Below, piece by piece: positions 1 to 60,179 of a stretch of 64,000 nt of DNA (the stretch's first letter is position 1; every line of letters starts with the position of its first letter). The position numbers and the translations under genes are program-made. Under the pieces are notes generated by a model, which saw only the letters and a program-made list of their open reading frames with translations, did no database searches and was not told the DNA's origin. The stretch covers positions 62,001-126,000 of the forward strand of contig CDROCS010004434.1 in the NCBI GenBank assembly GCA_977020255.1, given 5' to 3'. This stretch comes from Obrimoposthia wandeli. Lineage: Eukaryota.

Positions 1-30
1 GAGAAGGAAAAGTTCAAGAGAGGCATCTTA

Positions 31-470
31 ATGATAAGATGGCCTAAAGTGAGCTACAGTGAAATTCCACAAGCAGAGGAAAAAGACAAAAAAGATAATT
101 CCAGAAGAATTCTGAAATCTAGGATATCCAATGAGAATCCCAATGCTCCACCACAAGTAGCAGTAACATTGAACGGAAGAGAATATCTTGCCGAAGTTGA
201 TACCGGATCAGCAGTATCAGTACTGAGTAACGAAATCTAGTACCAAAAAGAATTAAGAGAAGTCTGTCCTAGAAACCAGAAATTTGTAAAAGTGAATGGT
301 CCAGATGTAGTGTCGACAGGAAAACTGAAATGTCCATTGAATATAGATGGAAGAGCATTAAAGTTAAATGCTAGAATATTCACAGATTGCGGTAGTCCAG
401 TCCTGATTGGGATGGACGTAATACGAATGTTTGAAGGAATAATTATACTACCAAACAACAAGAATTATAA
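31..470 (+). pseudogene. Retroviral-type aspartic protease, copy 1 (one in-frame TAG at 238-240)
   Basis: LAEVDTGSAVSVLS active-site motif. ORFs 31..240 and 292..747 share a frame, continuing to the C-terminal motif VLIGMDVI. Confidence 0.85.
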
Positions 471-682
471 GAATGACAGTTCAGTGAGAGAGATGAAAAT
501 GTTGAGAGGACATATAGTCGAAAAGGAAAAATGCACTACGTTCCGTATGGGAAGTTCGTACCCAGACAAAAAACAGGAAAGCGCTAGCAAAGTCGATACT
601 TCACTACAAAAATGTAAATTTCGGACCACAAGATACGACGAGGAGAAAAATAACATATGTAAATCTGTCAGAAAGGGATCCC

Positions 683-1700
683 ATGAGATTCGAGAGAAAG
701 AGACGAAATATATTAGAACAGTACTATTCAAAAGGAATGGCACGTAAAATGGCAAGATCAGGTTTAGAAATGTTAAACGCGACAAGCAGTTATGGTCATG
801 AGGAAGTCGTACGATGCGTATGGTGTAGAGTAAAGTTTAGAGAATGGGAACAGAATGAAAACCCAATGAGACGTCATAAAAGAGATGCACCAAATTGTCC
901 ATTTCTTTTGAAACTGAAAACGTCAAACGTACCAGAAATCCAAACGGAAAAAGCACCCGATTTCGATTACAGTGACGGGATTCCAAAAGGAGAATCAGCT
1001 CTAATAACAGGTAGAGTAATAACGAATAGTCGAATTGAAGATATATTCGAAGTTATGCGAGAAGTGAACGAATGTGACGAACAGTATCGAGAAATAACTT
1101 TCGAAGACCCAAGACTTAAAAATTGGCAAAAAGGGACTTTTTGCTATAAAAAAGGATGGTAAAGACGTAATTAAATGCCACAAGTGTAAAAAGGAACGGA
1201 ATTATCGACAGATACACTCTTGAGCTACCTAACAAAATTTTACATCATGAATTTTGCGAATTTTGTACTTTTAAAAACAAAATAAAGCAAAAAGAACAGA
1301 AAACCGAATGTATAATCGAATACCAAATCACACGGAAAGAGATTTTGGCTCAACAAGACACACCGGTAGTGTCATTCGTGAGAAGATTATATCCAAAAGA
1401 AGCAGAAAGAATCAGAGAATTGGTAGAATTAAAAATAAAAACTACGCGAAACGGATACGGATCGATTTTTGAATTACTGCGAGATAAAGACGACAGTACA
1501 ATTGAAACAAAAGAGAAAGAGTACATAAATGAACTGGAATACGTACTAGAAGATCCGTGATGCGCAGTTTGTGGTCAACAAAATAGAAGTTGCCTTTCTA
1601 CCATGCGGACATGTAAGAACATGTCGGAGATGTGCGAATGAAATGGTATCATGTCCGATTTGTCGAAGAATAATAGATCGACAAGTGAGAAACATTAGAT
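683..1700 (+). pseudogene. Inhibitor-of-apoptosis (IAP) module inside Pol: BIR1, degenerate BIR2, C-terminal RING
   Basis: BIR1 CVWC-x16-H-x6-C has exact BIR zinc spacing. A second BIR-like DVIKCHKC...LHHEFC spans frameshifts at ~1150-1270. IAP-type RING reads CAVC.VNKIEVAFLPCGHVRTCRRCANEMVSCPICR at 1561-1670, after a TGA at 1558-1560 and a 1-nt frameshift. Confidence 0.88.
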
Positions 1701-2506
1701 TTCACTATCCAAATATAGGAAGTGGACGGACAGAGTGTAATAATTTGATAAATACAATATACCATATGGGAAATATAAATGGAGCACAGCGACCAGCAGC
1801 TATCATTAGAGTAAATAATTTAAGAGTAAAAGCCTTAATTGATACAGGTGCTGTAGCCTCGATAGTAAGTGAAGACTGTTTGACAGAAGAACAGAAACGA
1901 ACAATGGCAGAACCAGATGAATTCTTGGTATCGGTCAATGGAGACCCTGTTAAAGTGACGGGAATATTACCATGTACATTTATAATTGGACGTAATACGA
2001 TCACTATACCAGTTAGAATCATGAAAGAATGTCCTGAACCTACAATTTTGGGAATGGATGTATTATCACAACTCAAAGGGATAAGTATTGATTTACAAGA
2101 TCCAAGATTGAAGGATAGCACATCAAACAGACAAATAAACCAAATTGATGTAATTATAGAGAATCCTATAAAAATCGGTAAAAGATCGCAATTTCTCATT
2201 CAAGGTCACACATTATCAGAAGATAAAGGACCAGTTGTGTTCGAACCATCACGAGATTTCATAGAGAAATACGAATTACCAGTTGTGAGTACAGTATGCC
2301 TGATCGAAAACCACAAAATACCAGTTAGACTGATGAATACAACCAACAATGACATCCTATTATACAGAGGAATGAGGTTGGGAAAGATAGCACAGATGGA
2401 GAATTCCACTGTATGCGCTATGAAACTCGATAAAGATACGAATGATTACGAAGAAATAGTAATCCAATCAGAAAGACTGACAACTAGAAAAGAAACAATT
2501 ACTTGA
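1571..2506 (+). CDS. Pol fragment: IAP RING fused in frame to aspartic protease copy 2 and the pre-RT beta-rich linker
   Basis: One ORF contains the RING, ALIDTGAVASIVS, PTILGMDVL and the IPVRLMN...LYRGMRLG segment common between PR and RT in Gypsy elements. Confidence 0.85.
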   Translation: MVNKIEVAFLPCGHVRTCRRCANEMVSCPICRRIIDRQVRNIRFHYPNIGSGRTECNNLINTIYHMGNINGAQRPAAIIRVNNLRVKALIDTGAVASIVSEDCLTEEQKRTMAEPDEFLVSVNGDPVKVTGILPCTFIIGRNTITIPVRIMKECPEPTILGMDVLSQLKGISIDLQDPRLKDSTSNRQINQIDVIIENPIKIGKRSQFLIQGHTLSEDKGPVVFEPSRDFIEKYELPVVSTVCLIENHKIPVRLMNTTNNDILLYRGMRLGKIAQMENSTVCAMKLDKDTNDYEEIVIQSERLTTRKETIT

Positions 2507-2529
2507 TCTAATACATAAATTTCCGAAAG

Positions 2530-3980
2530 TAATTGCAAAAATCCATATGACATAGGAGAAACACCTGTCATAAAACATACAATACCACTGACAGAAGACA
2601 AAGTAGTCAGAAGAAGACCATATCGAGTACCATTACAGTTACAAGATGAAGTAAAAAGTCAGATAGAAGATATGTCTAAAACAGGAGTAATTAGACCGAG
2701 TTTTTCAACGCCATTCTCAGCACCTCTGTGGTGCTGGTGTGTAAAAAAGAAGGATGGGAAAATGAGATTCTGTATAGATTTCGAGAGAACTGAACAAGAT
2801 CACAAGAAAAGATGTGTATCCATTACCTAGAATCGAAGAGATGCTCGATAAATTGGGTAATTCAGATTATTTTACGACATTGATTTGCAGAGTGGATACT
2901 GGCAAATCGAGATAGAGGAGTGAAGAGGATAAACACAAACAGCCTTTTCCTGCGGAGATGGATTATACGAATGCGAAAAAAGATGCCATTCGGACTGACA
3001 GGAGCTCCAGCAACATTTTCACGTTGCATGAATTTTGGCCTCACTTGCATCAGTGTGCAAACACAGATGGTTTATATCGATGACATAATAATATTTTCGA
3101 AAACGTTCGAAGAACATTTAAAAAATCTTGAAGTTGTATTTAAAAGACTGGAAAACGCTAAATTAAAAAGTAAAACCTACAAAATGCGTAAGTGCTAAAG
3201 AGCGAGTAACATTTTTAGGACATATAGTATCGAAAGAAGGCATTCGACCTGATCCAGCAAAGATCGAGAAAGTAAAAGCGCATTTAGCACCAAAGACTGT
3301 TAAGGAGATACAGCAGTTTTTTAGGTCTTGCGAATTACTATAGACGATTTGTTGAACATTTTTCAGATATAGCAACACCATTGAGAAAGTTGACGAGAAA
3401 AGATGAGAAGTTCATATGGGGAGAAGAAGCCCAACAAGCGTTCGAGCATTTAAAAGAAAGACTGATAAAAGCACCAATATTAGCGTTTCCAGATATAAAC
3501 CGACAATTCATACTCATGACAGATGCAAGTAACTATGCTGTAGGAGCAGTATTGGGACAAGAGGATGACGAAGGAAGAGAACACGTCATCGCGTATGCGA
3601 GTAGAGGATTAAACAGAGCCGAAAAGAGGATACTCTGTTATCGAAAAGGAAATGTCTAGCCATAGTGTATTCATGTAGACAGTACAGACACTATTTGCTA
3701 GGACAAAAAGTATTCCGGCCTGTATACAGATCACAAACCACTACAGTTCTTGTATAAACATAGAGATGAGATGAGTAGATTAAACAGATGGTTTCTAAAA
3801 TTGGCCGAATTCGATCTAGAAATCCGTTATAGAACCGGAAAGTCGAATGGCAACGCAGATTGTTTATCGAGATTGACAAATGTAGACGAGAAAGGAAACA
3901 TAATTCCAGAAGAAGATAAAACCAATGACCAAAAAGGAGAAGCAAATCTACTGACGATTTTGCTAAAGACGGTAAAATAG
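2530..3980 (+). pseudogene. Reverse transcriptase and RNase H, frameshifted
   Basis: Motifs RRPYRVP, MPFGLTGAPATFSR, YIDDIIIFS, LMTDASNYAVGAVL and NADCLSR are spread over several frames. Confidence 0.92.
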
Positions 3981-4099
3981 ACAAAGAGATCATCAAAGAA
4001 CAGAAAAAGAAGATGAAGAACTGAGTCTAATCAAAGAATTGTTGGTGAAAGGAGATCTAAACGATGAAATGACGAAAAATACTCGATAAAAGAAGGAAT

Positions 4100-5300
4100 C
4101 TTGTATATTGTCAATAATGTCGGAAAGATAGTAGTAGTAATTCCGAAGTCATTGGAAAACAGCAGTGATGATCCAGTATCACGACGGAACACTAGGAGGT
4201 TTACATCTGTCAGGGCGAAAGACAATAGCCAGAATCAAAGAGAAGTACCATTGGGATGGTATGGAAGACGACATAAAACAATGGTGTAAACAATGTAAAG
4301 TATGTTTAACCAGAAAAGACACCGGAACTCGTACTAAAGTTCCGTTGAAACCAATGCCAGTTCCCTTGGCACCAATGGAATTCACAGCGATGGATATATT
4401 GGGACCATTGAGAGAATCAAGTAAAGGAAACAAGTATGTCATAGTATTTACGGATTACATGACGAGATGGGTAGAAGCATATCCCATGCAGAACCAGAAA
4501 GCTGAAACAATAGCGCAAATCTTAGTGGAAGAGATAATATTTCGATACGGAGTGCCTAGAAAGTTGTTAACGGATCAAGGTAAGAACTTCACTGGAGAAG
4601 TCATAAAAGCAGTATTGAAGATATCTGGAATTATGAAGTTACAAACTTCACCATATCATCCACAGACAGATGAATCGGTGGAAAGGTTTAATAAAACTTT
4701 ATGTATGATGGTGACAATCCTATTGCTCAGATAAGCAAGAGGATTGGATAAATATTTACCTTCATGTTTATATGCTTACAGGAATTAGTTCGAGAGGCGA
4801 CAGGTCACACACCATTCTATCTGATGTATCTCAGACAGAACAATATGCCAATGGATCTGGGACTGAGCCAACATCTCAGTACCTAGAAACTGAACAATAC
4901 ATTGTCGTCATGAAGGAAAGATTACAAGATGCTTGGACCAAAGCCGGATTGAAGTTGAAATTCAATCAAGAAGGTTACAAGGAACAATACGACAAAAAGC
5001 AAAACCGCATGAATTTAGAGCCGAGATCAAGTGATGATATTTTATCCAGTCATCGAACCAGGTCTATCGTTTAAACTTCATAGACCATATAAAGGACCAT
5101 ACAAGGTGATCCAGACAACCTCAACAAATTTGAAAGTAATCAACGAAGAGAATCGGAACAAGGAACCGATGATTGTACATGCAAATCGATGCAAATTAGT
5201 ACCAAATAAAGATAATGCGTCACGATATGAGTTAAGATCACAGAAATCGAAATCGAATACCAATACCATTAAACTTACACTATTAATGAATGGTAAGTGA
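4100..5300 (+). pseudogene. Gypsy integrase (HHCC zinc finger, DDE core, GPY/F tail), frameshifted
   Basis: HDGTLGGLH...CKQC, AMDILGP, LTDQGKNF, VERFNKTL and RPYKGPY are all present. Confidence 0.92.
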
Positions 5301-5354
5301 TCGGAACTACATAAACATGATGACGAGTGGTGGCGAAGAAAACCAGAGAACGGT

Positions 5355-8300
5355 ATGCTCAGAATGAAGTACCAAGAGGAAAAGGAAGTAATCCGACACA
5401 TCGCACCACAGGAGATATTAGAAGAAGACGAAGAGATAATAGTCGTTTTCGAAAAAACACAACCAACAGACGTAGCTAAAGAAGTCATTGTGAAAGATGC
5501 ACTAACAAACGAATTTCTGTGCGAACTTAGAGTGTCATACTACGACGGAAATACACTAGTCGCAGCACTTTATCAAAATTCCAATGTGTTTACGACTGAG
5601 AAAGTGATAATCGAAATCACATTGACACCAAACATAGTTGCATGGCAGAACTATGACAGTACTGAAGCAGGACTAGCCAGTCAGGAAGAGAAGGAACCGG
5701 CCGGTGGTCACATACTGCATGGTACACCAAAAAGACTCAAACAAGAATACCACGATGTAATAATGGTATTACGTAATTCACATGGGGAAAGAGATATCAT
5801 GAGAGTCCATTTAATCGACGCTGACACTGAAAAGATAATTTGTCAGATGGACACCAAATATTTTGATGGAAAGACAATTGTATGTTGTATACCAGAATCT
5901 CACCGGTTAGACACAGATCAAACGGAAGTATCTGTAAGGTTGAGCGTAATAGAAGGATTCCATTCGCCAACTTATCCGGAAGTGACTAACAATAAAATCA
6001 TCAAAGCAACGGCAGAGTTACGCATTGACAGCGGATACCGGAAGTGGGAAGCTAAAAATAAAAAGCCACAAAGAATCAATATGATCCGAGAACAAGTAAC
6101 AACTTCAAACCAGCCAAAATATCATGCTGAAATAGTATCATCCGCGCCAAGTGTAATTACATCGATAAACGACGAAATTATAATTTTACTAAAAAATCGA
6201 TGGCCGTCATCAACCGAGATACGAGTAAACTTAATTAATTATGCGAAGACACCGATATCTAAGCTGAATGTTACCTATTTTGATGGATTGTCCATCATGG
6301 GTAAATTGGAAACAATTGTCATGTGCTATGGAGCACAGTTCCAAGTTGAGATACTTAAAGATAGTGTAATACCGTATCCGATTCACAAATACGAAGGGGA
6401 AATCAACCCAATTATTCTAACCCCTTCATTAATTTCAGTTCAAACAGACATACCAGAATACCCTTCGAGCGAGTCTAGTGAAGACAGCGAACCGGAAAGT
6501 AACGATACAGAATCAACAGAATCCGAAGATAACATAATAGAGCGATTCGGAAGAACCATTGAGGTTGAATTCGCTAAAGAGAGCAGAAAAAGACAAAACA
6601 TAGAATTCGTGAAACAGAATATACAAGAAAGACGAATTAAATCTGCAGAAGAGACCGAGTCGGAAGAAGACTCAACAAAGAAACAAACATCAGAGACAAA
6701 GATGAATATCTCTCCAGCAATACGAATGCTGAGAGGAAAGAAATTGGCGAAACTATCCAACATCGACGAACAAATAGAGAAGAGATTAGAAAGACTAAAA
6801 CTTGAAGAGTCAGAATTAATGCCACCAATGAGTGAGATCATTCCAGGTAAGTTATACCTCGGAAATGTGGAGGATGCAACAGATGAAAAGAAACTGTTGG
6901 AACAAGGGATAACATATGTGATCAACGTTACAATGAATCACAAATCGCAATATCAGACGATCAGAGCTATGACATTAAGAGTAAAAGACTCAATGGACGC
7001 TAATCTTCTCGAATGGTTTGTAGAAACAAACGAAATACTTCACAGAGAACTCCGAAACCGAGGAAAAGTGTTAGTACATTGTCAGAAAGGAATTTCTCGA
7101 TCAGCAACCCTAGTATTAGCATATCTAATAAAGACTAGACGAATGCAGGTACTAGAAGCGTTAAAATACCTACAGGAGAGAAGAAGTATTGCAAACCCAA
7201 ATCTTAATTTTTTGGGACAGTTGGCAAATTACCAACTTCTGTTGCAAGAACAAAGACGGATGGACGACATTCCTGAGGATCCAAAGGAAAAGAATTTCCT
7301 CCAAGCATTATCATTGACCGGGTTATTTTTAGCCGGAGTCGATAAAATCACACAGATAATGCCAAAAGTATTTTTATGTCATCCAGGAGATATAGATACT
7401 GCTGGATTAAAGTTCCATAGTATCAACCGAGTAATCAACATTGTTGAAGTCGGAAACGAGATAATTAGTCTGTGTCAAAATACTGAAGATGACACCATTC
7501 GATACATACATGCTTCCAATCGAGAGATAAACGATGCACAACAACATCTGACGAAATTGACTCAAACCATCCAAGCTGAAGTCACAGAAGGAAACGGCGT
7601 TCTGATATATCAGAAAAAAGGTACAATGTTAGCGCCTACCATAGGTGTATCCTTGTTGGTAGAGTACCATGGTCATACGCCAGAAGAAGCGATGGTCTAC
7701 ATCAAACAGAATAGACCAAATACGGAATTCAAACCGTTACTCGTTCGAGAAATAGAGAAATACACCGAAAAGAGGAAACAACAACGAGAAACAAATGAAG
7801 CTACAACAACAGTGCCCAGCTTTCAATACCAAAGATTGCTAGCGATAGGCTTGTTAAGTTGTTTAATGCCGATAACGGGAGCACAGGAGATAGGCTCCAA
7901 CCACGGAAATAGTTCCTGGTTCAACGAAATCCACAATTACACCATAAAATACCATACACCGGCACTGATGATGTTATTAGTATTGTTAGGACTAATTGAT
8001 GTATGGATCATCCGAATATGTCTTCGATCTATGAGAACCGACAGTAAAAGATTTCAGTTTGTAAAGATGAAAAGACCAAATGGACCAACGAACAAAGTGC
8101 TTGTGTATCTAGACGAAAGGATCGAAGACAACATAGTAAATGAAGCGATATTTTACCCACAAAACAGAATACTGAATCAATTCCGAATAGATTACGAAGC
8201 TGACCGACAGCGCACACTTGACCGAATATCAACAACATTCGCCGGATGCAAGCGAAGAAAACGAGTTGTAAAGGAAATACAAAAAGATGCTGATACAAAA

Positions 8301-10496
8301 GGACCAACGTATATATTCGATGGCGATGTCATCAAAACACGTGAGTATGGAAGTAAGAGAGTGATAATTGAAACGATGGAAGGACATAGAACATGCTTGT
8401 CCGCAAAAAATGGATTCGGAAAGTTGACGATACAAGGTAAACCAGTACAGTTGATTATCGGACGAGATGGAATCGAGGAGATGTCAAAACAACGACAGAC
8501 AACAAAACGAACCAATCAGAAACAGATATCTCTCAAACGATTGATAATTAAAACCCTTTGCAAAAGGTCAGTCAAGGCTCTGTGCACCGTTGCACAAGGA
8601 TTGATCTATGGAGTAGTAATTGGATTGGTACTGCAAGCCATGCCAACCAGTAAAGCCGAATTGATGACACTATCCGAATATAATTTACATTTGAGAAATC
8701 TAGACAACACCCTAGAAATAATCAAGACATCCCACAGTAGAGCCGTGATGATCATGTGTGTAAAAGGATGTCCAGGACGAATGTGTATAGTCCCAGCGAC
8801 CGAAATGATAACACTTAATGGACATTATGGAGTTAGTGTTGTCACATGTGAAGACTACATATTTGGACAAACTAAAATAGTGCTTCTCAGTGACATGTCC
8901 AACCAAAGTGCACACAAATTTAGAATATTAACCATCAAGAGTAAAGGAATACCAGCAGTACGTTATGGTATTCTAGAATTGGTTAATCCAATACTGGCAC
9001 TGATCATTGGATTTATAATATTAATATTACTCATTTTGTTTTGTTGTTCAAAGATAGAGTCGAGATCAAAAAAGAAACGTCATGACCTCGCAAGACGAAC
9101 AGGTCAAATGAACTTACAAAAATTCAACACAATTATACCAAGACCACCATTTCTAGATGAACCAGCACCAGAGTACCAGCCAACGATATATGAACATATT
9201 GAGGAAAGACCGTACTATATGAGTAATTTGACTTGTTTCATTGAAGTTCCTGAGTTTAGGAATCGAACGATCATAGGAATCATGCTGATCGTACAAATCA
9301 CCACTACCAAGGCTAGTTATGAGATCATGATCAGTAAATGGAGACAAGACGTAATACGGGCAATATACATAGAAATTCCCTTACTAAAAACAAATCACGT
9401 AGTAGACATTCATCTACAGACGTCAGCAACTGACAATATCGATCAGAAATTGTATGTCATCCGACAGGTCAGAATAAAAATCCACCAAAATACACCCGTT
9501 TACAATTTAATATTATTGTATCATGAAAGAGTGTTATACCTACGGATAACAATATCAAAGAGGAAGCGGATTATCCAAAGTATCCGAACAAAGTCATTAA
9601 TATTACCTAGAGATGAGCGCATCTGGAAAATTGTCGACAGGATTATGATCACAGGTAGACGACGTAAAGCCGTATGGAATTCCGTTAGGATATTTTTCAG
9701 ATTGCTAGAAACTGACAGCGTGACAGTAATGAGTCCCAACCCAGATGGCGTAATCAGATTCGAAATCCAAAGCCAAATGTTAGTACCACATTTTAACACA
9801 GAATGTCTGTGTAATCGAATTGCCAGTAATTCTACAGAGACCTCGACCATAATCATGATAATAACAGGTGAAATATTCTACATAACTCTAAGATACCAGA
9901 ACCGTCGATTTCGTAGATACGGTATAAGTATCAAACCCAGGAAAATCATTCCCAGAAGACCAATCCTAGTCAAAAAGAAGGCAAAGGTAATCGAAAGTAA
10001 ACGCCATTCCAAAAAACCGACAGTGATCAGAACAAAGACAGAAGCGAAAGAAAAAGAGCTAAATCCCAGAAACCAAAGTACAATTATTAAGAAGACAAGA
10101 GTGAGGGGAACGATCCCACTAGATCCCAAACATCATTTCCAATCCAAAATAATAATACCTGTTCCATCAGAAACAAAACACCCAAATCCCCGAATTTTTA
10201 GAAAATCGGACATAATACATGGAAACCGATCAAAACCCATGGAAATGTCATTCGAACCAACAAACAACAAAATGAAGTATGATTATAAATCATCAGACAG
10301 CGGAATAACAGCGGTCAATGCCCTAATTGGAATGGCCGTAGTGTCAACAGCAGTGGTTTTATTGACAATCGTGCGTAAAAGGCAGTCACCAGTATGCCCA
10401 GGAATACGACGAAAATGCGAAGGATTGCGATGCTGTGACACACCCATCATGGAGGAAGTGGAATTAGACTTACCTCCGCCTCCCATCAAGATATGA
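5355..10496 (+). CDS. 1713-aa cargo polyprotein: three beta-rich repeats, dual-specificity phosphatase, pseudo-phosphatase, serial signal-peptide/TM (env-like) region
   Basis: Uninterrupted ORF. DUSP fold at ~6828-7245 (LYLGN, VHCQKGISRSATLVLAYL, NPNLNFLGQL). Second DUSP-like copy at ~7345-7770 lacks the catalytic Cys (LIYQKKGTMLA). Hydrophobic segments at ~7830-7885, 7960-8025, 8570-8660, 8990-9050, 9265-9315 and 10310-10375. Confidence 0.85.
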   Translation: MLRMKYQEEKEVIRHIAPQEILEEDEEIIVVFEKTQPTDVAKEVIVKDALTNEFLCELRVSYYDGNTLVAALYQNSNVFTTEKVIIEITLTPNIVAWQNYDSTEAGLASQEEKEPAGGHILHGTPKRLKQEYHDVIMVLRNSHGERDIMRVHLIDADTEKIICQMDTKYFDGKTIVCCIPESHRLDTDQTEVSVRLSVIEGFHSPTYPEVTNNKIIKATAELRIDSGYRKWEAKNKKPQRINMIREQVTTSNQPKYHAEIVSSAPSVITSINDEIIILLKNRWPSSTEIRVNLINYAKTPISKLNVTYFDGLSIMGKLETIVMCYGAQFQVEILKDSVIPYPIHKYEGEINPIILTPSLISVQTDIPEYPSSESSEDSEPESNDTESTESEDNIIERFGRTIEVEFAKESRKRQNIEFVKQNIQERRIKSAEETESEEDSTKKQTSETKMNISPAIRMLRGKKLAKLSNIDEQIEKRLERLKLEESELMPPMSEIIPGKLYLGNVEDATDEKKLLEQGITYVINVTMNHKSQYQTIRAMTLRVKDSMDANLLEWFVETNEILHRELRNRGKVLVHCQKGISRSATLVLAYLIKTRRMQVLEALKYLQERRSIANPNLNFLGQLANYQLLLQEQRRMDDIPEDPKEKNFLQALSLTGLFLAGVDKITQIMPKVFLCHPGDIDTAGLKFHSINRVINIVEVGNEIISLCQNTEDDTIRYIHASNREINDAQQHLTKLTQTIQAEVTEGNGVLIYQKKGTMLAPTIGVSLLVEYHGHTPEEAMVYIKQNRPNTEFKPLLVREIEKYTEKRKQQRETNEATTTVPSFQYQRLLAIGLLSCLMPITGAQEIGSNHGNSSWFNEIHNYTIKYHTPALMMLLVLLGLIDVWIIRICLRSMRTDSKRFQFVKMKRPNGPTNKVLVYLDERIEDNIVNEAIFYPQNRILNQFRIDYEADRQRTLDRISTTFAGCKRRKRVVKEIQKDADTKGPTYIFDGDVIKTREYGSKRVIIETMEGHRTCLSAKNGFGKLTIQGKPVQLIIGRDGIEEMSKQRQTTKRTNQKQISLKRLIIKTLCKRSVKALCTVAQGLIYGVVIGLVLQAMPTSKAELMTLSEYNLHLRNLDNTLEIIKTSHSRAVMIMCVKGCPGRMCIVPATEMITLNGHYGVSVVTCEDYIFGQTKIVLLSDMSNQSAHKFRILTIKSKGIPAVRYGILELVNPILALIIGFIILILLILFCCSKIESRSKKKRHDLARRTGQMNLQKFNTIIPRPPFLDEPAPEYQPTIYEHIEERPYYMSNLTCFIEVPEFRNRTIIGIMLIVQITTTKASYEIMISKWRQDVIRAIYIEIPLLKTNHVVDIHLQTSATDNIDQKLYVIRQVRIKIHQNTPVYNLILLYHERVLYLRITISKRKRIIQSIRTKSLILPRDERIWKIVDRIMITGRRRKAVWNSVRIFFRLLETDSVTVMSPNPDGVIRFEIQSQMLVPHFNTECLCNRIASNSTETSTIIMIITGEIFYITLRYQNRRFRRYGISIKPRKIIPRRPILVKKKAKVIESKRHSKKPTVIRTKTEAKEKELNPRNQSTIIKKTRVRGTIPLDPKHHFQSKIIIPVPSETKHPNPRIFRKSDIIHGNRSKPMEMSFEPTNNKMKYDYKSSDSGITAVNALIGMAVVSTAVVLLTIVRKRQSPVCPGIRRKCEGLRCCDTPIMEEVELDLPPPPIKI

Positions 10497-10620
10497 TGAG
10501 TCAGGAGGAGGTTGTAGATAAATTAGTGTGTGAAATATGTAGAAATATCTAGAAGCGATTGTACAAATAGTAGAAGTATATAAAACTCATGTAGAAATTA
10601 ATCATCATCATGTATTTAGA

Positions 10621-10920
10621 ATGGCCGAAGAATGCCCAATATGTTTGGAAGATCTAACCGAACGAAGAACAAGACCCGAAACCTGCAACCATTTACACCA
10701 CGAGGAATGTTTATCGACATGGATCAGAACTTATGGACAGTTCGGACACCCAACATACCCTCGTTGCCCTGTATGCAGAAGACAATTCGCAAGATTCGTC
10801 ATGTTAGAACCCAACCAAGAGGATGTATATGTACAGGTGGTATTCTGTTGGAAGAATTTCGGAGAGTGTTGGTGTTATTACTGTTTGTCAGATCGACAAA
10901 ATCAGACCACTTTTGTGTAA
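10621..10920 (+). CDS. Small RING-H2 putative E3 ligase, copy 1, with C-terminal CWK..CWCxxC motif
   Basis: CPIC...CNHLHHEEC...W...CPVC pattern. TATATAAAA at ~10577 and TTTAG immediately 5' of the ATG. Confidence 0.8.
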   Translation: MAEECPICLEDLTERRTRPETCNHLHHEECLSTWIRTYGQFGHPTYPRCPVCRRQFARFVMLEPNQEDVYVQVVFCWKNFGECWCYYCLSDRQNQTTFV

Positions 10921-10980
10921 ACATCACACAACCACCAGTCCTCAATCGAGCCCAAATTCAACATCAACCCTCCCACAGTA

Positions 10981-11310
10981 ATGTCTGGAGAATGTTCCAT
11001 CTGCTACGAGAGCATCGTGGACTTCTACACCAAGCCCAACAACTGCGACCACCTTTTCCACGTCGAATGCCTCGAGACGTGGATCCCCATCGCAAACAGC
11101 AACAATCCCCTCGACTTCCCAACCTGCCCGATGTGCAGAGCGACTCTTCTCAGTACACTACGTGTACAACCAAGACAGCCTCCAAGCAGTGGTACCCATC
11201 GTACACTGCTGGAAAACCATCTGCGATTGCTGGTGCTCGTTCTGCGTGGAGGAGCGAAGCACAGGCCAGCCCAATCCCCAACAATAATCGAAGGTAACTT
11301 TCTGACTTGA
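10981..11310 (+). CDS. Small RING-H2 putative E3 ligase, copy 2; C-terminal Cys motif is frameshifted
   Basis: CSIC...CDHLFHVEC...W...CPMC pattern. An alternative frame at ~11190-11260 reads VVPIVHCWKTICDCWCSFC, matching the copy-1 tail. Confidence 0.78.
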   Translation: MSGECSICYESIVDFYTKPNNCDHLFHVECLETWIPIANSNNPLDFPTCPMCRATLLSTLRVQPRQPPSSGTHRTLLENHLRLLVLVLRGGAKHRPAQSPTIIEGNFLT

Positions 11311-11627
11311 ACGTGACATCATGAACTACCCTGTGTATCGCATACCGCGATAAATTAGCTACCATAATTGTAATCATAATTATATAATCTTGTGAACTGT
11401 AAATTGACCATTACCATTTTTATGTATGATGTTTAACTGAAATTGTAATTATTATACTGAATTTCTAAAAAAGACAATTTTTATGCTTAGTGTGAATGCG
11501 TAAACATGCCTAAAATCTAAACAAAACTCGGTAGGATTAGATAACTAAGGATTCATTTTGAAATAAAATTTAAATTAACGATGAGAACGGTGAACCCCAA
11601 ATTGAAAGGAGTTATTTTCTCATGCAG

Positions 11628-12112
11628 ATGAAGTGCGCTGTATGCATGGAGAAAATTTGGGCGGTATCAGCATCCCCTGTCGGCTGCCGCCACAAATTTC
11701 ACGAATCCTGCCTATATACTTGGGCCCGACTTCGACCCGAAGGACATGTCAATTTTTGCCTTTCGCGGAATGGACACTACAGTGTCGAGGGCGCCACAAG
11801 GGCACCCATTCGCTCACCAGCTGTATTGGTGGCGAGCACTGCCATTGCCCCGACTGTATCGCACGCCGTCGCGATGCAAAACTCGCCCTCCGCGAGAAAT
11901 ACCGGTCAACTCGCGACCCCCGCTCATGGCAGCGTGGCCGTCAAATATGGCTCGGAAATCGCGGAATACACGGGCGATATACTACCATTTTCCACCCGAG
12001 TCAACACCTCACCATGCGCCAGCAAATGTTACTATACAATGGCGGCCCACCATCGTATCCGGAACTACCACTGGAGCAGGTCTTGCTGTTCCTGAAGGAC
12101 AGGAACGGTTGA
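11628..12112 (+). pseudogene. RING-H2 protein, copy 3, frameshifted
   Basis: MKCAVCMEK...GCRHKFHESCLYTW, then a frameshift near 11755 into the frame with HCHCPDC that ends at 12112. Confidence 0.7.
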
Positions 12113-12692
12113 CAGATCTCAAACATTCTTGTGACATATCCCAGACAATCTTGTGACATATCCCACACCCTCAATAATTTTGTGTGTAAATTTTTAGTTG
12201 TGTATAAATAATAATGTATGGTTTGAGACTTGCTCCAAATTATATATTATGTTTCCCACTAAAAACCGGAATTTTGGAAAATTTTTTTTTGGGCATGTTT
12301 GTTGAAGTTGAATGATTGATTTTGTAGGGATGAACCTAAAATCAACAGCCAAAGGCTTATTTAAGTAAAATCGATACGTTCCGGGGACGTAACTTTTTTG
12401 GAACCCCCGAGGTATGTTAAGGTCGAGAAATAAGAAAATTAAATATTTTAGTCGATTAAATACTAAAATAAAAATCCTTGAAAGCAAGGTTGAAAATTAA
12501 ATTAAAATATTAATTTTAGTTTTAAAAATTAAAATTAGTGGAATTTAGGGTAAAAATTAGGAGGACCACGAAGGTCGTGTATAATGTGAAAATGTATAAA
12601 AGTTTAAAGTTAATTAACCAAAAGGACAAAAATTAATTAAGGAGAAAATCAGACAATTAAGAATTAATTCAGAAAAGAGAAGTTAATTAAAC

Positions 12693-13006
12693 ACGTCAAT
12701 CAAGGATCCAAAGGTAAGCACATTTTCGTGCAGTAAAAAACTAAAATCTTATTTTGCAGCCGTCATTGATTGACAGGAGATACCAGTTCTCCTACTTCCA
12801 CAATTGTTCTTATTTTGCAGCCGTCATTGATTGACAAGAGATACTAGTTCTCCTACTTCCACAGTTGTCAGCCGTCAATTGATTGACGTCCAGTGCCTCT
12901 ATATAAGGCAGTATCTAGAAACCCACAATCACAACTACAAGTCGACTGGAAAAAAAGAAGAAGCAAGTAGACAGAAGACAATCCCCTCGACCACGAATCG
13001 GTAAGT
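12693..13006 (+). promoter_or_regulatory. LTR promoter: four TGATTGAC motifs, TATA box, ATG-less leader and splice donor
   Basis: TGATTGAC at 12767, 12828 and 12880, inverted at 12693-12702. TATATAA at 12900. G|GTAAGT at 13000/13001. Confidence 0.6.
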
Positions 13007-13050
13007 GGTGATTTGGGACAGAGGTAAAATTAAAATTATTTAGATTGCTG

Positions 13051-13600
13051 AAAAAGTGAACCAATATTCGAGAACCAATAGTTTGAAATATCATTGACCA
13101 ATATTTGAAATATAAAAAGTGAACCAATATTCGAGAACCAATAATTGAAATATCATTGACCAATATTTGAAATATAAAAAGTGAACCAATATTCGAGAAC
13201 CAATAGTTTGAAATATCATTGACCAATATTTGAAATATAAAAAGTGAACCAATATTCGAGAACCAATAATTGAAATATCATTGACCAATATTTGAAATAT
13301 AAAAAGTGAACCAATATTCGAGAACCAATAGTTTGAAATATCATTGACCAATATTTGAAATATAAAAAGTGAACCAATATTCGAGAACCAATAATTGAAA
13401 TATCATTGACCAATATTTGAAATATAAAAAGTGAACCAATATTCGAGAACCAATAGTTGAAATATCATTGACCAATATTTGAAATATAAAAAGTGAACCA
13501 ATATTCGAGAACCAATAATTGAAATATCATTGACCAATATTTGAAATATAAAGTGAACCAATATTCGAGAACCAATAGTTGAAATATCATTGACCAATAA
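13051..13600 (+). repeat. Tandem array of ~9 copies of a 62/63-bp unit, each with three CCAAT motifs
   Basis: Anchor GTGAACC at 13056, 13119, 13181, 13244, 13306, 13369, 13431, 13493 and 13553. Confidence 0.95.
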
Positions 13601-13763
13601 CGCGAAAGAAGTCGAAAGTCACAGTGACTTTGAGGACGATTCCGCCAGACTTACAATTTATCTCTGGAAAGAAGACGATCCCACAAGTTCGTCAAAACCA
13701 CCTACGGACCCTACATCGGACAGCATACTAGTCGCAGCGTATTGGTAAGCCAACCGACTAGAG

Positions 13764-14200
13764 CATTCATTGCCCCTAGTTGGCAATTAGGATACTGTCA
13801 TTACCCCTTGTTGGTAATTCTACATTTTAAATTAATACACAAATTCATTGCCCCTAGCTGGCAATTAGGACAACTCGACTCTTTAACACAATCATTGCCC
13901 CTAGTTGGTAATTAAGATCGGACATTTATTCATTGTCCCCAGCGACAATTAGGAATCCTACCCAGACGTTTTACCTGTAAGATTCATTGTCCCTAGCTGA
14001 CAATTAGGTTCATTCATTGCCCCTAGTTGGCAATTCGGATAAATACTCATTGTCCCTAGTAGACAATTCGGTAAGACTCATTGTCCCTAGCTGACAATTC
14101 GGTTCGTTCATTGTCCGTAGTTGACAATTAGGAGTAAGTTTTCATTGTCATCTTGACAATTAGTTTTTTAGGAGATCCATTGTCACAGTAGACAATTCGG
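13764..14200 (+). repeat. Array of 12 short inverted repeats, ATTRYC-N5-7-GRYAAT, with variable spacers
   Basis: Arm variants ATTGCC/GGCAAT, ATTGTC/GACAAT and ATTACC/GGTAAT all keep pairing. Loop is mostly CCTAGYW. Confidence 0.9.
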
Positions 14201-14794
14201 GTCAAACACACACAGATAGAGTTAAGGAACAAAGAAACATTTAGCTAGAGATAAGAAGTAGGAGCGAAGAAATTTAAGAGAGTTGCGTTATAGATTAACC
14301 AACCTGAGTAAGAAGACTAAACCTAAGAAACTTAATCACCTGAACGTAAAATCGATACGTGGTTCATCCCCACTTCTTGTAGAGACTTACAGAAGTCCTT
14401 TAGGAATTTTATCATACTTTTTAGAAATACGTACATAAACGTATTGTTGTGTTAGTTACGTGAATTACGAATAAACAATTTCCTACATTAGAACAAGTTG
14501 TTTTTACACTCTTCAGACTAAGAGACATCAAATCAAATACCTTCAGATAGTACAAGAGATTAGGCAACCATAACACTAAGTAGGCCACGACCAACTTTAA
14601 GACCTGCTTCTAATCGAACTCACGTTGGGGCCCTCCGCATTCAAGAGGCTCTATACCAAGTTTCGTATAGAAACCCCAACAAAATGAATGAATGACGCAG
14701 AATAAATGACGTTATGGAGAGTCGATAAATACACATCCGTGGACACATTCATAGAAACATGTTCTATTATTGTATACATATTTATTAATTAAAC

Positions 14795-16390
14795 TGTTGG
14801 GGCTAGAGTTGTTGACTTCTACCTAGTGAGTTCTTAAAGGCATAGGAGTTGTGTTTATAAGTGTACCAGGGTTAATATCAAATTTGAAGGTTAATCGACT
14901 TAGGGAAAAATGTATGGTACAAATAATTTAATATAACACAACATAAATCGAAAAGCAATTTTTTATAATGTAACTTCAGATAATCTGTATCACAATTTAT
15001 TATAATGCATGTACACACAATTTCCCGATTAGTAAAATGTACTGTCGTAAGCACATTCTTAACTATATGCCTACTCATATACTACTTCTGATCACCGTTA
15101 CAGGCAATTTGGGCTCTTGTTTTAAAGGACAGGCTCTGGGGTTTAAAAAATAATTACAAAAAAGAGAAATAGGTGGTAAAAAAATTAAAACTTAGACAGT
15201 CTGTCTTACGGTTCCAATGAGAGACTGATATTATGTACTGCCTGGTTTCATCTGCGTATCTGTAAATCTGTTTCCTGTGCTGTTGTACTGCTTGTGTCCA
15301 GAATAACTCCTTCGTTAAAAGAAATTGTTGTCACTGTTTCAGAGATCACCTTAGGTCAATAAACCGACTTTCTGAGTTAATTAATCACTCAAAATTCCTT
15401 TTTTGCGTTTTAATTTTGTTATTTAGTTTTTACCCTTTATGTCCTTGGCCAGGACTATAAATATGTTGGGACTATAGTTATAGAACGCCTCTAGTTCGTG
15501 AGTTTTTAATGGAATGTGACTTGCGTGGAAGGCTTATCCTGTGTTATCTCTAAATATGAAGTTTAACTGTTATGATGTATATGGGTTTTACTTTTATTTT
15601 TAAAACAAATATTAACTATCTGTTTTCAATATTAAAATTATACAACTATAAAATGGTATGACTTAGATATTTTCGATATAAAACTTACACGAATCTTAAC
15701 ACTTAATATGTTAAATAAAACAAGAATCAAATCCAGGTTTGGGAAAAACTTCTAAATCCTATGTAACTTTTACAAAAGTCTGAGACTGTTACGGGTATTT
15801 GACTTTATTTGTAGTTTTCAAAAGAAAGGGACCGTACCGGATTAACAGTTTATATTATTGAGTGAATTTCAGTTTAAATTATTATTTTAAATAATAAGCA
15901 GAAATCTGGCTGGAGAAATCTATATTAAAGGGGTCGTGTCGAGTTAATAGTTTTTTTTAATTCTTGAAAGATTGTAAGTTACTTTTAATAATTTATTTAA
16001 AATTAAAATGTCTGTCTTACGTTAATGTTTATCTGTCTTTGAGTTTTTGTCTTTGCTTTTAATCTACGAGAAGAATTTATTGTTAACGTTTATCTTGCTT
16101 TAAATTCTGTGAATCTGGGTTATTTTTCTGTCTTCTGATTCTCTGTCACCAATTTGTTTTTCGAAGTTTCATTTTTAAAAAGTTAATTCAGTTGATAATG
16201 ACATCGCTAACCAACTTTATTTTAGAACTAATTAACTCACCATCAATTTAACTTTTGGGTTTTTAATTTAAATTGGTCAGGACTATAAATATAGCTAAAT
16301 TTATTTAATATTTAAAATAACTGACCATTTCTGGACATCAACAAATAAAGTTATTTTTTAATTATTCTCCTCCTTTTCTGAACCCCAACA
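14795..16390 (-). mobile_element. Solo LTR (1.6 kb) of a related family, inverted orientation
   Basis: Termini TGTTGGGG...CCCCAACA with 4-bp TSD AAAC (14791-14794 and 16391-16394). Its reverse complement shares GAACTCAC and ACCTTCA with the other two LTR ends. Confidence 0.85.
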
Positions 16391-45661: not shown

Positions 45662-48600
45662 AGTTATGTAATCAGAAACCGGAATTATCTTACTTTCGAT
45701 AATTTGTTAGGGAACTGATATTTTATAATCAGAATATAAATTGTGTTGTGAAATCTAAGATTTGAATTATGTCTACGATAGAAAACATAACTGGCGATCA
45801 CGCCGAAATAAATGTAATGACGAGAAGTCAATCAAAGAAGAATATCCTCGAGACTATGCCTAAAGAACAAAGAATGATGTTCCAGTATAACATAAGAAGA
45901 TACGATGGAATGAGTTCAAAGGAAGGTGAACAATGGTTAAAGGATATAGGAGAATGGGTTGACGCAAATCAGATTAATATTGGAGATGCATTTAAGTTGC
46001 TGTTGACCGAAGATTATTATGAATAGATGCCAGTGAAAGATTAAATTCAGATATCGAAGTCAAAAATATGGTTTGAAGAAAATTTCCTAGAAAGGAAATC
46101 CATAGTTGACAAAGTTTGCGAACTTGCAGACGTAAAGCAAGTAGAAGGTGAGCGTTTCTCAGCGTTCAGCATTAGAGTGAAAAAACTCGTTGATGCTATG
46201 ATGGAAAATAATGTTAGCAAAGATGAGCTGACTGACGCATTAAGATAGAGTAAGAAGTGAAGACCTAAAGGAGCAGTTTTTATTAAAACCAATGATGCCA
46301 AAAGAAGAAATTAGAGGCGATGGCAAAGCTGTACAGCGAAATCGAGAAAAGAATACCGTGATTGCACAAATTCATAATACGTATGCAAATACAGTAAAAA
46401 GAGAATTCAACCGTTCTGACAACCGTCATTTCACAAACAATACAAAGAAACCAGTATCAGTACCAGTACATCAGGAACAAAGAAATTATGTTAATGAATA
46501 AAAAGGATACATAAATAGAGACGCCAAAAATCAAAATAATAGGAGACCAATGCCAAGGTTTTCTTTAAAATAAATAGCTAAAAGAAAATATAACTTAGCT
46601 AAGGGACTGCCTGTCACAAAAAGTAAAGAACTTCAACCAGGAAGATGTTTTTGTTGTGGTGAAAAAGGTCATTTTCGAAATCAATGTCCTCTCAATCACA
46701 AATGTTTGATTTGCGGAAAAGAAGGTCACAATTTCAACAGCTGCTAAATTTTAAAGAACCTACATCAAACTACAAGAGTACTTTGTATAACAGAAGAAGC
46801 GAAAGGAAATAATCAAAATTTAGAAGATTGTAATAATGATGACATGATAATACATTATGTTAATCAGGGATACGTGAGCGATCCCATTGCTCCCATTTCG
46901 TCGGTGGGATCGAGCATATAGAACCAAAGCGGAATGAAAAGATGTATATGAAGAATGATGGTCGTGAATGGAGTATAATGAAGATTAATGATGTAGATGT
47001 AGAAATGCTGTGGAACTCCGGAGCATCAGTTAATGTAATGAGTAAGAATTGTTGGAAGAAAGTAGGATGTCATAAAATGAGACAGAGTAATTTATATTTG
47101 AGTGGAGTTTTTTTCGAATAATCATGAACAGCCTTTATCATTACTAAATTGTTATGGAATGGAAAGGAGAATGTTTTGGAAATAATCTTTGTAGAAGAAA
47201 TTAAACCAGAATTTATTGGTGTAATCGATACAATGAAAACATTTGGAATAAAGCTGCAGGAAGTATGTAATATGGACTTGTCTTGCATGATGAAAACGTT
47301 TTCCTCGAATAAAGAACATATAAAATATGTAATTCTTTAAAATGCGATAGAGACTCAATTTTAGGACATTATATTGTGAAATTTGGGAGAATATTTATGT
47401 GTTCTAAATTTGATCTAGGATATACCAAAATTGTCTCTCATAAGATTGAGACTATTGCCAATCCTATGTGCCAAAATTCTAGATGACAACCGATGCTTTT
47501 AGAAAACCAAGTTGATGAAATGATTGAAAATGTACTCAATGTAAACGTAATTAGGCGTTGTGAAAGTCCTTGGAACTCGCCATTGGTCATTGTGAAGAAG
47601 CTAGACAATACAATTCGAATGTGTGTTGACTACAGACAATTGAATGCTGTAACCTAGAAGTTTACATTTCCAATACCGGATGCACAACTCTTGTTCGATT
47701 CTATAGGTGATGCTAAAATATTTACGACATTAGATATTGGACAAGCTAATTTTCAGGTAGATCTAGAGAATGAGTCTCAGGGAAAAACGGCTTTCAGTAC
47801 AAAATTAGGACGATTTTGTTTCAATCGCATGCTATTTGGGTTGGCTACAGCACCGGCAACATTCCATAGTTTTGGGGTAAAATATTGTATGGTTTGTTGT
47901 TCAAAGGAACAATTGTATATCTAGATGATATCGTTGTTTATAGTAACAACCAAGAAGAACATTATAAATTATTAAGAGGTATTCAAAAGAATTGCAGCAG
48001 CAGGCCTTAAAATAAACCCTAATAAATGCTACATTGACCAGAAACAGTTAAAATTCCTAGGTCATATCATAACAGAAAGCGGAATACATACAAATCAGTC
48101 GAAAGTCAACGAAATTATAAATTTTAAAGAACCAGATTGTAGTGAAAAATTAAAATCATTTTTAAGAATGGCAAACTATTATCGACGATTTATTAAAGAT
48201 TATGCAAATATTTCAGCTCTACTATATGTAGCGGGGTCTGGAGATAAGAAGTCAATACAAACAAGTTTTGAACTCCTGAAAGAAAAATTAACAACAGCTC
48301 CCATATTAGATTTCCCCAGGTGAAATAGAAAATGTATAATTGATACAGACGCAAGCTTTGGTGCGATTGGGACAGTTTTGAGCCAACTGGATGAAATGAG
48401 AAACGAAAAAGTGATTGTGTACGCTTCAAGACATTTGACTTTCCCTGAGAAAAGATACTGTGTTACCAGAAAAAAACTTTTAGCAGTATACGAATTTATT
48501 ATGCATTTCAAACAATATTTATATGGAACTGAATTTTTGGCAAGAACACATCATAAAGCATTAGTATTTTTAAGAACGACTAGAAAACCAATCAGTCCTC

Positions 48601-51406
48601 AATTTCAAACATGGTTGACAAATTTATCAGAATTCAATTTTAAATTAGAACATCGTAAAGGTATTGACCATGGTAATGCCGATGGTATGTCAAGATTGAA
48701 TGAAACAGTATGTGATCAGTGTGTAACTAAACATATAGAGAAGAGATATAAAATAAGATATATTCACTCACTAAATAAAGACAACTTCTTGAGTAAGATA
48801 AGGAAAATATAACAAGAAGATTATAAAAAGTGAAAGAAATGAACGTTTTCATCCATCTGGAAAGTAAGGATTTATCAGAAGAATGCAAAATAAGTGAGAT
48901 TTATCAGATAAAAGAGAAACTCAAACTCCGCCAGGATATTCTTTATTTTAAACAAAATTTTACGTCATTTATGGAAGAAAAAAAAATTAAAGCATCAAGT
49001 GCAACGACAAAAAATAAAGAAGATATCATTCAAGACGTAAGGAAGAACCAACAAATCGTAGCTGAAAAGTTAAAGAAATTAGATAATGAAGAGAAGAGGG
49101 GAAAGGATATTTGAAGTAAATGAATAGGTGCTTGTTAAAAAGGATCCAATTAAAAGAAGCAAGAATAGTGACCAGTTTGAAGGCCCATATAGAATAAAAT
49201 AATTTTCGAGTCCATGACAGGTATTAATTCCGTTTCTAAGAAGAATCCTACCCAGGAGAATCGAATTGTTGAAGAAGTGCTAATTTGAATAGGGAAGGAG
49301 AAAGTTATGTAATCAGAAACCGGAATTATCCTACTTGCATTTATTTGTTTAAGTATTATTATTTAAACCTTTATAATATAAATTGTGTTGTGTAATCTAA
49401 CTCTTGAATTATGTATCCAATAGAAAACATAACTGATATTATTCACCTTTTAGTTTATACCATAATTATTCGTCAACTACAAATCGTTAAATTGTTATTT
49501 TGGTTTAAAAAACGTGTTTTCTGATCATGTTGATATCTAAAAAAAATCTGAAAATGTTTAATTACATTTTCGTAAAAAGTTAACATATTTAGACAAGAAG
49601 TTTACTATTTTGTTAAAGGGAAAAAAAGTTATTTTTTATTACGCAGTGTTATTATTAAAAATGTAAAATATATCTGACGAATTCATACATAATAGAAAAT
49701 GTATAATTGATACAGACGCAAGCTTTGGTGCGATTAGGACAGTTTTGAGCCAACTGGATGAAATGAGAAACGAAAAAGTGATTGTGTACGCTTCAAGACA
49801 TTTGACTTTCCCTGAGAAAAGATAATGTGTTACCAGAAAAAAACTTTTAGCAGTATGCGAATTTATTATGCATTTCAAACAATATTTATGTGGAACAGAA
49901 TTTTTGACAAGAACACATCATAAAGCATTAGTATTTTTAAGAACGACGAAAAATCCAATCAATCCTCAATTTCAAGTATGGCTTGCAAATTTATCAGAAT
50001 TCAATTTTAAGTTAGAACATCTTAAAGGTATTGACCATGGTAATGCCGATGGTAGGTCAAGATTAAATGAAACATTAAGAAACATTATTAAGATAAGGAA
50101 AATTCAGCAAGAAGATATTCATGTGAATGAAATGAAAGTTTTCCTCCAACTGGAAAGTAAGGATTTATCAGAAGAATGCAAAATAAGTTGGATTTATCAG
50201 ATAAGAGAGAAACTTAAACTCTGTGGGGTTATCCTTTATTTTGAACAAAACTTTACAGATTTAATTGTCATACCTCCGAAAAACGCTAATGAAATTATTA
50301 ATGAAATTCCCCAATATCTTTGTCACCTAGGAATACAAAAAGTTTATAACTATATGAAAGATAACTTTTATTTAAAAGGAATGTTTCAAGAAATAAAAGA
50401 ATGTATATCAAAGCGCGTTTACTGTTCCAAAAGGAAATTTTAAACAAGCAGAACAAAATAAATATATATTGCTCTAATCAAAGAAATTTTTTAGATCAAA
50501 TAGTTATCGATATAGCTCACATGAAGGAAGGAAGATCTAAATAGAAATATATGTTGATAGTAATCGATCGATTTAGTAAACTGGTATCACTATCAGCAAC
50601 CTCGAAAGAAGATGAAATAACAATTACTAAAGCCCTCCAGACAAATTGGACATATAAATTTGGAAAACCTAATAGAATTTTAACAGATAGAGGACGAATA
50701 TTTACTGGAAATTATTTTCAGAATTGGCTAGGAAAATTTGGTATTGAACAAGAGCTTACAGCACCTTATCAACACCAAGCTAATGGTCTATCAGAAAGAG
50801 TTATATGCACGGTAAGAGATATGATTGTAATGGCAATAGCGTCTACTAAAACAGGAAAATGTTGGCACGATTTATTGCCACAAATTGAATTTGCTATAAA
50901 TGCAACAGTAAATAGTTCTTCAAAACATTTACCGTTTGAGGTTATTTATGGAAAATAACTTCAAGCATCAAATACAACAACAAACAATAAAGAAAATATC
51001 ATTCAAGACGTAAGGAAGAACCAACAAATCGCAGATGAAAAGTTAACTAAGTTAGACAATGGAAGAAGAGGGGAAAGGATATTTGAAGAAAATGAAAAGG
51101 TGCTTGTTATAAAGGACCCAATTAAAAGAAGCAAAGATAGTGACCAGTATGAAGGCCCATATAGAAAAATATAATTCTTGAGTCCACGACAGGTATCAAT
51201 TCAGTTTCCAAGAGGAATACTTCTCAGGAGAATCGAATGGCTGAAGAAGTGTAAATTTGATTTGTTTAGGGGAAAGTTATGTAATTAGAAACAGGAATTA
51301 TCTTTACTTTTGATAATTTGTTTAAGAGCTGATATTTAATAATCAGAATATAAATTGTGTTGTGAAATCTAAATCTTGAATTATGTCTACGACAGAAAAC
51401 ATAACT
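45662..51406 (+). mobile_element. Decayed Gypsy element with three ~131-bp LTRs (45662-45792, 49303-49434, 51275-51406)
   Basis: LTR termini AGTTATGT...ACATAACT. PBS TGGCGATCACGCC overlaps the first LTR by 1 nt. Purine tracts precede LTR2 and LTR3. 5-bp TSD GTTAT (45657-45661 and 51407-51411). Two CCHC knuckles at ~46650-46745, plus RT, RH and INT relics. Confidence 0.9.
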
Positions 51407-51919
51407 GTTATAATTACAGGTATTTTTCAATTTTTATTAACAAAATTAAAATTATTTTAAAGATAAAAATGTTTGGAAGATAATTGTAGAATACAAACTG
51501 TTATGGGCAAGAGGCATTTTGTGATAAAAATTATTTTTTAACATTTAATTTTTTTAATATTAAATAAATATTTTAAAATTTTTGGATCAAAAGTTAGTAA
51601 GTTATATGTTTTATCTGTTTGTGTAAAAGTTGTACGAAAAATTGAAATTGACTGTATAGCATAATATTTAATATAAACTGTAGATATTGCAGCGTAATTA
51701 GTAAATTTAAATAGTGAACAAAATTTCTAATATATTTTTACTTGCACATAATTTATAATACATTTTAAGATATGTTCTTCTCGTTATTCAATTAAATCAA
51801 AGTAATTACATTTTAAAAATACGGTATTTTATGTATTCGAAAATAATATTTGTTCATGCTTAGCACAGCTTTTGTTTAAATATTCGTTATTTACGTAATT
51901 TTTAAAAATATTGAACGTT

Positions 51920-60013: not shown

Positions 60014-60179
60014 CTGTTACATAATTCAGTCGGAGTAAAAATAGAATAATGAAAAAATAAATAATAAAGAAAAATTTTCATGCAATTGTAGAATATGTAG
60101 TCCTAATTTTTGTACAACAGATTTATTATATATTGATCAAGTTATCATTCTGGCCAAATTAGCCCAATTCGGATTCATT

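Follow-up and report, generated by a model that had tools for sequence, protein, structure and literature searches.

Inside a long terminal repeat (LTR) of a giant retroelement, a row of twelve short inverted repeats raises the question whether these units work as RNA hairpins, as DNA sites or not at all, and what such a row would do for the element. A sequence-only reading of the window, that is, of the whole 64,000-nucleotide stretch of Obrimoposthia wandeli DNA analysed here, had taken them for RNA hairpins presented to a protein, with palindromic Sox sites as an alternative. Only for few retroviruses is it understood how an LTR element that has identical ends and splices internally retains its unspliced RNA and brings it out of the nucleus. 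Thousands of genomic copies here amount to a rare natural mutational scan, in which a comparison of G·U with A·C combinations reads selection on RNA structure from DNA alone.

Host element and LTR organisation

The element, a Burro-like member of the gypsy group, measures 23,982 bp (~24 kb) between its LTR ends. It codes for a Gag that has a single CCHC knuckle, for a fusion protein of mononegavirus type, and for protease, BIR, RING and protease, then reverse transcriptase (RT), RNase H (RH), integrase (IN), a DSP phosphatase and three small RING open reading frames (ORFs); in the window copy, the coding region (Table 1) is broken by stops and frameshifts. In giant size and domain layout it matches Burro by description (accessible part of PMC6431247). 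The accessible parts of PMC6431247 and PMC13465017 describe Burro elements as planarian gypsy-like giants with a CCHC-knuckle Gag, a ubiquitin-like piece and, separating gag from pol, a fusion protein of mononegavirus type, followed by BIR plus RING and then by PR-RT-RH-IN. In the window element, an Env-like fusion protein is located between Gag and protease (Monjiviricetes_fusion, E=5.5e-96), BIR (E=5.7e-11) and RING (E=1.7e-9) matches mark an IAP-like region, and PR-RT-RH-IN occur in this order in an element far above the usual LTR element size, all of which are Burro-like traits. A ubiquitin match (E=0.031) was weaker than the Pfam cut-off, and no BCL2 or dUTPase domain of the element was matched in Pfam. 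Unlike Burro, for which >30 kb is quoted, the element has 24 kb, one knuckle was found, and a DSP phosphatase and extra RING ORFs are present.

Acceptor-like AGs (10618-19, 10977-78, and 11626-27) directly precede the ATGs of the three RING ORFs, and subgenomic splicing from an LTR donor with these ORFs as its targets is therefore likely. Eight matches at the second RING acceptor were discarded, none of them containing an LTR exon. Two copies, L427 and L429, have in common a deletion of ~100 bp, the end of which coincides with the AG that precedes the second of these ORFs.

The 3′ LTR has a 5′ twin at G000:C4434:52700-54842, 21.7-21.8 kb upstream; since both are 99.8% identical, the insertion is young. 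The primer-binding site starts ~8 nt past the LTR end and is followed by long tandem repeats (L031, 6900-8050; G000:C4434:54900-56050), which occur in all three compared copies. Right before the 3′ LTR, no clear purine tract was found. The AAAATCGATACG motif is present twice, at 12368-12379 just upstream of the 3′ LTR and at 14348-14359 in the conserved LTR block, and the same pair exists in copy B. U3 contains three copies of the TGATTGAC motif (12747-12890), two of them inside a 61-bp duplication, and this motif resembles a PBX-MEIS site.

From 13743 on, the window LTR resembles several other sublineages, and the promoter and exon upstream have been exchanged; the 62-bp tandem repeat is specific to the window's sublineage. 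The LTR ends in a block common to the examined lineages, a 22-nt piece of which has 15,253 exact matches in the genome. Among 120 distinct LTR ends, the acceptor-like AGs at 14425 and 14516 are kept in 94 and 93, respectively, and the AATAAA, the sole one downstream of the TATA box, in 118. As previously noted, this AATAAA and the TATA box at 12900 flank the array, but the AATAAA starts at 14470 and not at ~14450. With these two signals as borders, R would span ~1.55 kb with donors before the poly(A) signal, and a position of the array within R is plausible. Spliced retro-copies using the acceptor-like AG at 14425 were not found, the one match for 14516 proved to be a 4-nt duplication in a decayed LTR, and no donor-to-acceptor joint was among the 15 of 47 joints listed for four sequence runs (contigs of one sample, kind unrecorded, possibly the assembly's own source).

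Table 1. Features of the element and its 3′ LTR in the window
Feature	Position	Strand	Remarks
Element coding region	1-10496	+	end of Env-like region through DSP phosphatase
Three small RING ORFs	10618-12156	+	acceptor-like AG just before each ATG
3′ LTR (TG...CA)	12415-14681	+	5′ twin; 4-bp target duplication AAAT
TATA box	12900-12908	+	from sequence; putative start site ~30 nt downstream
First donor-like GTAAGT, LTR leader	13001-13006	+	
62-bp tandem repeat, 8.8 copies, CCAAT-rich	13051-13599	+	in putative first intron
Splice-donor-like GTAAG, candidate major donor	13745-13749	+	GTGAG in other lineages
Hairpin array, 12 units	13769-14196	+	6-bp stem, 5-7-nt loop
Units 1-4	13769-787, 13800-818, 13847-865, 13894-912	+	
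Units 5-8	13932-949, 13986-14004, 14016-034, 14049-067	+	
Units 9-12	14080-098, 14110-128, 14144-160, 14179-196	+	
Block common to examined LTR lineages	14347-14681	+	acceptor-like AGs end 14425, 14516; AATAAA 14470-14475

The hairpin array and its occurrence among LTR lineages

The twelve stem-loops with variable spacers are present as first described. All units follow the pattern ATTRYC-loop-GRYAAT, which matches just twice more across the remaining 63.5 kb. Stems are of the types GCC/GGC (three units), GTC/GAC (seven) and ACC/GGT (one) or contain a G-T wobble (unit 4), the loop is CCTAG(T/C)(T/A) in 7 of the 12 units, and spacers measure 11-36 nt. Because the pattern has 32,498 matches genome-wide and its reversed control has none, the array is not a product of chance. 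Its position just behind a splice-donor-like site was likewise confirmed: the GTAAG is located 19 nt before unit 1, and a donor-like GTRAG (GTAAG or GTGAG) was found 23-25 nt ahead of unit 1 in 91 of 94 arrays.

The earlier reading overlooked that the place of the array, behind the last LTR donor, is a slot for hypervariable repeats. Arrays of at least 11 units were present in 8 of 30 unselected LTRs; four more had degenerate relatives, and the rest carried mostly unrelated AT-rich repeats in that slot. Arrays consist of about 10-17 units, which have been duplicated and lost between copies. The array is missing from a sister lineage whose interior is 91% identical and whose Gag has the same zinc knuckle; its slot is occupied by other repeats. 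Since this lineage and most unselected LTRs do without it, the array is optional for the family; as a module it belongs to a single group of lineages, and sister lineages fill the slot with other repeats.

Further repeats were observed in this slot and elsewhere. In the stretches of up to 800 nt that precede the conserved block in L356-L385, each lineage carries an AT-rich tandem repeat of its own behind a GGTRAG donor, and many of these repeats end in small AGAG...CTCT hairpin-like units, which are missing from the window's lineage. A rare relative (L364 and L365, G000:C3) has >40 units of 22-23 nt with a CAAAGT loop; its stems (ATTGT/ACAAT, CTAT/ATAG, and ATTAT/ATAGT) covary at other pairs, and several units are broken. 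A loose-pattern scan of public metagenome and viral contigs yielded at least three units at 4 of 240 loci, which have other flanks and spacing and were taken as unrelated. Likewise unrelated are arrays of 47-48-bp repeats with covarying ATTAYC/GRTAAT inverted repeats in public metagenome contigs (L134, L201, and L235).

Pairing within units and on the sense strand

The claim that both stem arms change together held across family copies. For 67 recurring unit types, 99% of the hairpin cells are paired and two pairs covary with changes on both sides, a result that none of 500 shuffles reached. In 57 distinct arrays, inner-pair mismatches amount to 14 within units versus 64 in the register of neighbouring units, and permutation of the arms (2,000 times) gave a mean of 146 and a minimum of 124. 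The outer three stem pairs hardly change and show no covariation. Variable columns number 18 of 144 in stems, 11 of 80 in loops and 74 of 140 in spacers, the latter changing ~4 times as often as stems. Loops are partly conserved, with C in the first position and G near the 3′ end, and flanks are fixed. Because loops and flanks are conserved like the stems and the outer three pairs are near-invariant, these data point to a binder reading both sequence and shape.

Each of the two variable stem pairs has a G·U intermediate or the mirror-image A·C intermediate. Both states are equivalent on double-stranded DNA, and only G·U pairs on the sense RNA. Genome-wide, we counted 3,094 G·U versus 26 A·C at pair 4 and 1,403 U·G versus 28 C·A at pair 5, so the mirror-image half-site combinations differ ~120-fold (pair 4) and ~50-fold (pair 5) in number. 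Background transitions, determined from the 18-kb interior of three element copies, were 35.8 (C>T) and 16.2 (A>G) per 1000 for the wobble-making and 32.0 (G>A) and 20.0 (T>C) for the mismatch-making changes; since the two kinds are equal, mutation bias does not explain the G·U excess. On inspection, same-sequence pairs 18-25 kb apart made up ~46 of the first 100 U·G matches listed and 0 of 54 mismatch matches, all 54 A·C/C·A matches being singletons. Because only wobbles pair up like the two LTRs of an element, we conclude that replication passes wobbles on and that mismatches arise as later damage.

As genome-wide counts reflect descent, classes were counted too. In 94 arrays, nine recurring position-by-type classes are wobbles and one is a mismatch (p=0.011), a generous p-value because wobble classes may spread by conversion between units and because, after the first 30 arrays, roughly two in three were taken from wobble lists; the genome-wide counts were not drawn from this wobble-chosen sample. 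The single replicating mismatch is a C·A in the last unit of five arrays, where the loop can add a C-G pair. The G-C, G·U, and A-U states were all seen in unit 3 across copies. In the four contig runs, two of the 21 common variant positions listed for the array fall into stems, both C>T giving G·U, and count as no independent support for pairing.

From these thousands of copies we infer that the units are very probably local hairpins under selection on the sense strand. The asymmetry between G·U and A·C and the replication of G·U argue against palindromic DNA sites, cruciforms and neutral repeats, and together with covariation within units the asymmetry supports the earlier preference for RNA hairpins over DNA palindromes. 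Sites for Sox or another dimeric protein, serving as an intronic enhancer or insulator, would fit the likeness of CATTGT to a Sox site, the other enhancer-like repeats of the LTR, and the twelve spaced sites, which recall the gypsy insulator. However, the halves accept GCC, GTC, and ACC, yet only sense-strand Watson-Crick or G·U combinations spread and not their mirror images, a direction that double-stranded sites and cruciforms do not have. With half-site combinations that are not used symmetrically and a centre spacing ranging from 5 to 8 nt, the Sox alternative of the sequence-only reading is quite improbable.

The same data largely refute a neutral origin by reverse-transcriptase slippage in a long R, with palindromes kept by template-switch correction or conversion between units. 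Conversion would make hybrids both ways, deletions joining early GCC to later GTC units would yield the missing C·A class, spacers are ~4 times as changeable as stems, and wobbles persist in thousands of copies. Although fast-changing tandem repeats are abundant in the slot of all lineages and array units are themselves duplicated and lost, we consider this origin very improbable.

Single hairpins are predicted to be weak (-3.6 to -5.7 kcal/mol), and in a whole-array prediction with a 30-nt span 8 of 12 hairpins stayed below 0.4 probability. Since free array RNA is thus not predicted to exist mainly as these hairpins, help from a protein or folding during transcription has to be invoked. The strands could not be told apart by global fold z-scores (-3.2 sense, -3.6 antisense), and a folding test on the repeats of 21 lineages had no power, the hairpin lineages themselves being near 0. 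Three other structures were rejected: an alternative fold of the loop with a UAGG tail (no covariation, 77% paired), loop-loop kissing via CUAG, which is not conserved in other lineages, and a likeness to the U1A and IRE motifs, given a paired AUUG and a variable loop triplet.

Proposed function and related systems

With a probability of roughly 0.5, the array is an RNA element of its lineage that binds protein multivalently, lies in R and where the major intron begins, and would steer splicing, export or poly(A) choice of genomic RNA. Each unit very probably forms a short hairpin of its own in the sense transcript, and the hairpins would present their partly conserved loop and fixed flanks to an RNA-binding protein, most likely one of the host, that attaches in many copies. 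Because the array would be located at the very start of the intron opened by the last LTR donor, only unspliced genomic RNA from the 5′ LTR should carry it. Bound 24 nt from the donor, the protein may damp splicing, and the intron-keeping RNA would survive and leave the nucleus; alternatively, it may modulate how the poly(A) signal, located 725 nt further downstream, is chosen in dependence on U1. Against a role confined to the intron, spliced RNAs would keep the 3′ copy of the array if R extends as suggested. Against a meaning of the position, repeats of other lineages also start near the donor, and the intron may simply be tolerant.

In foamy virus, the major donor is located in R of the LTR upstream of the poly(A) signal, and structure instead of linear distance governs donor-dependent poly(A) suppression (accessible part of PMC3694450). 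The window element has donor-like sites before the AATAAA in both LTRs and so would face the same choice between 5′ and 3′ poly(A) signals; unlike foamy virus, it has a putative R of ~1.55 kb that holds repeat arrays along with two donor-like sites, and a row of separate hairpins in place of one donor-centred fold. This precedent and the selection of pairing itself would suit a purely structural role, in which hairpins without a specific binder compact the stretch between donor and poly(A) signal or block long-range pairing. Such a role is improbable, given that loops and flanks are conserved to the same degree as stems, the three outer pairs are near-constant instead of covarying, and the hairpins are weak.

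The main rival of the protein-binding reading is packaging. Retroviral packaging signals lie behind the last donor, and nucleocapsid prefers unpaired G. Hairpins of the array, right behind the last donor, would offer unpaired G to the single zinc knuckle of Gag and give their lineage an edge for Gag supplied in trans. A loop G is present in at least 90% of unit types, and variation of loop length and sequence is tolerated. Furthermore, in most other lineages the slot repeats contain more G than C on the sense strand, and TTGA is above shuffles in 20 of 21, which are related samples. This packaging enhancer nevertheless appears doubtful, since the array is missing in the sister lineage despite its 91% identical interior and same knuckle, and in R it would be carried by spliced RNAs too. 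Behind the primer-binding site, where packaging signals are usually found, all three compared copies carry the long tandem repeats described above, which are a better candidate for a family-wide signal. The more general packaging or condensate role suggested earlier is weakened, most family LTRs lacking the array despite common machinery. Like retroviral psi (accessible part of PMC12789967), the array has several loop-G hairpins behind a candidate major donor, but a second copy of it is present in the 3′ LTR; unlike psi, it is not found in all members with the same Gag, being absent from the sister lineage and most unselected LTRs.

Returning to the protein-binding reading, HTLV-1 RexRE, MPMV CTE, and HIV RRE are single larger folds with known binders that favour unspliced RNA (accessible part of PMC12789967). 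Like them, the array is a structured RNA in the LTR, judged by G·U asymmetry and covariation, and binding and export would be common to both. In contrast to them, it consists of 10-17 independent 6-bp hairpins in variable number and is absent in most sister lineages, and no Rex/Rev-like protein was identified. An Rfam search of 12300-14800 gave 0 matches up to E=5. The array thus resembles RexRE, CTE, and psi in its working but is a member of none, as it has no Rfam match, is optional and is a variable row of separate hairpins. The Xist A-repeat and MS2 arrays are repeated-hairpin scaffolds whose conserved small units and variable spacers are suited to multivalent binding. The array shares these two properties with them; it differs in that there is no sequence relation and covariation favours pairing within and not between units.

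A wider idea, for now tentative and rather unlikely, is that what follows the last LTR donor serves as an exchangeable address cassette made of RNA, in which each lineage evolves a multivalent array for a different protein. If so, it would be comparable, at the RNA level, to enhancer swapping among the roughly 15,000 LTRs with one common replication machinery and would determine in which cells the genomic RNA avoids splicing, undergoes export or prevails in packaging, and the hairpin array would be its best-optimised example.

In the literature covered, no such array is described, and the accessible parts of the Burro descriptions (PMC6431247, PMC13465017) contain no hairpin array; the 2026 Dev Cell Burro1 paper and Grohme 2018, both possibly relevant, were outside this coverage. 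As planarian stem cells are reportedly supported by elements of the Burro type (work cited in the accessible part of PMC13465017), an RNA control module in such an LTR would be a handle on their regulation, and a short, tunable hairpin array with a putative binder is an easy target in vitro. Elsewhere in the window, we observed an eIF3d-like gene with two long open stretches (51899-53709) and remnants of other retroelements (48000-51400 and 58856-63418).
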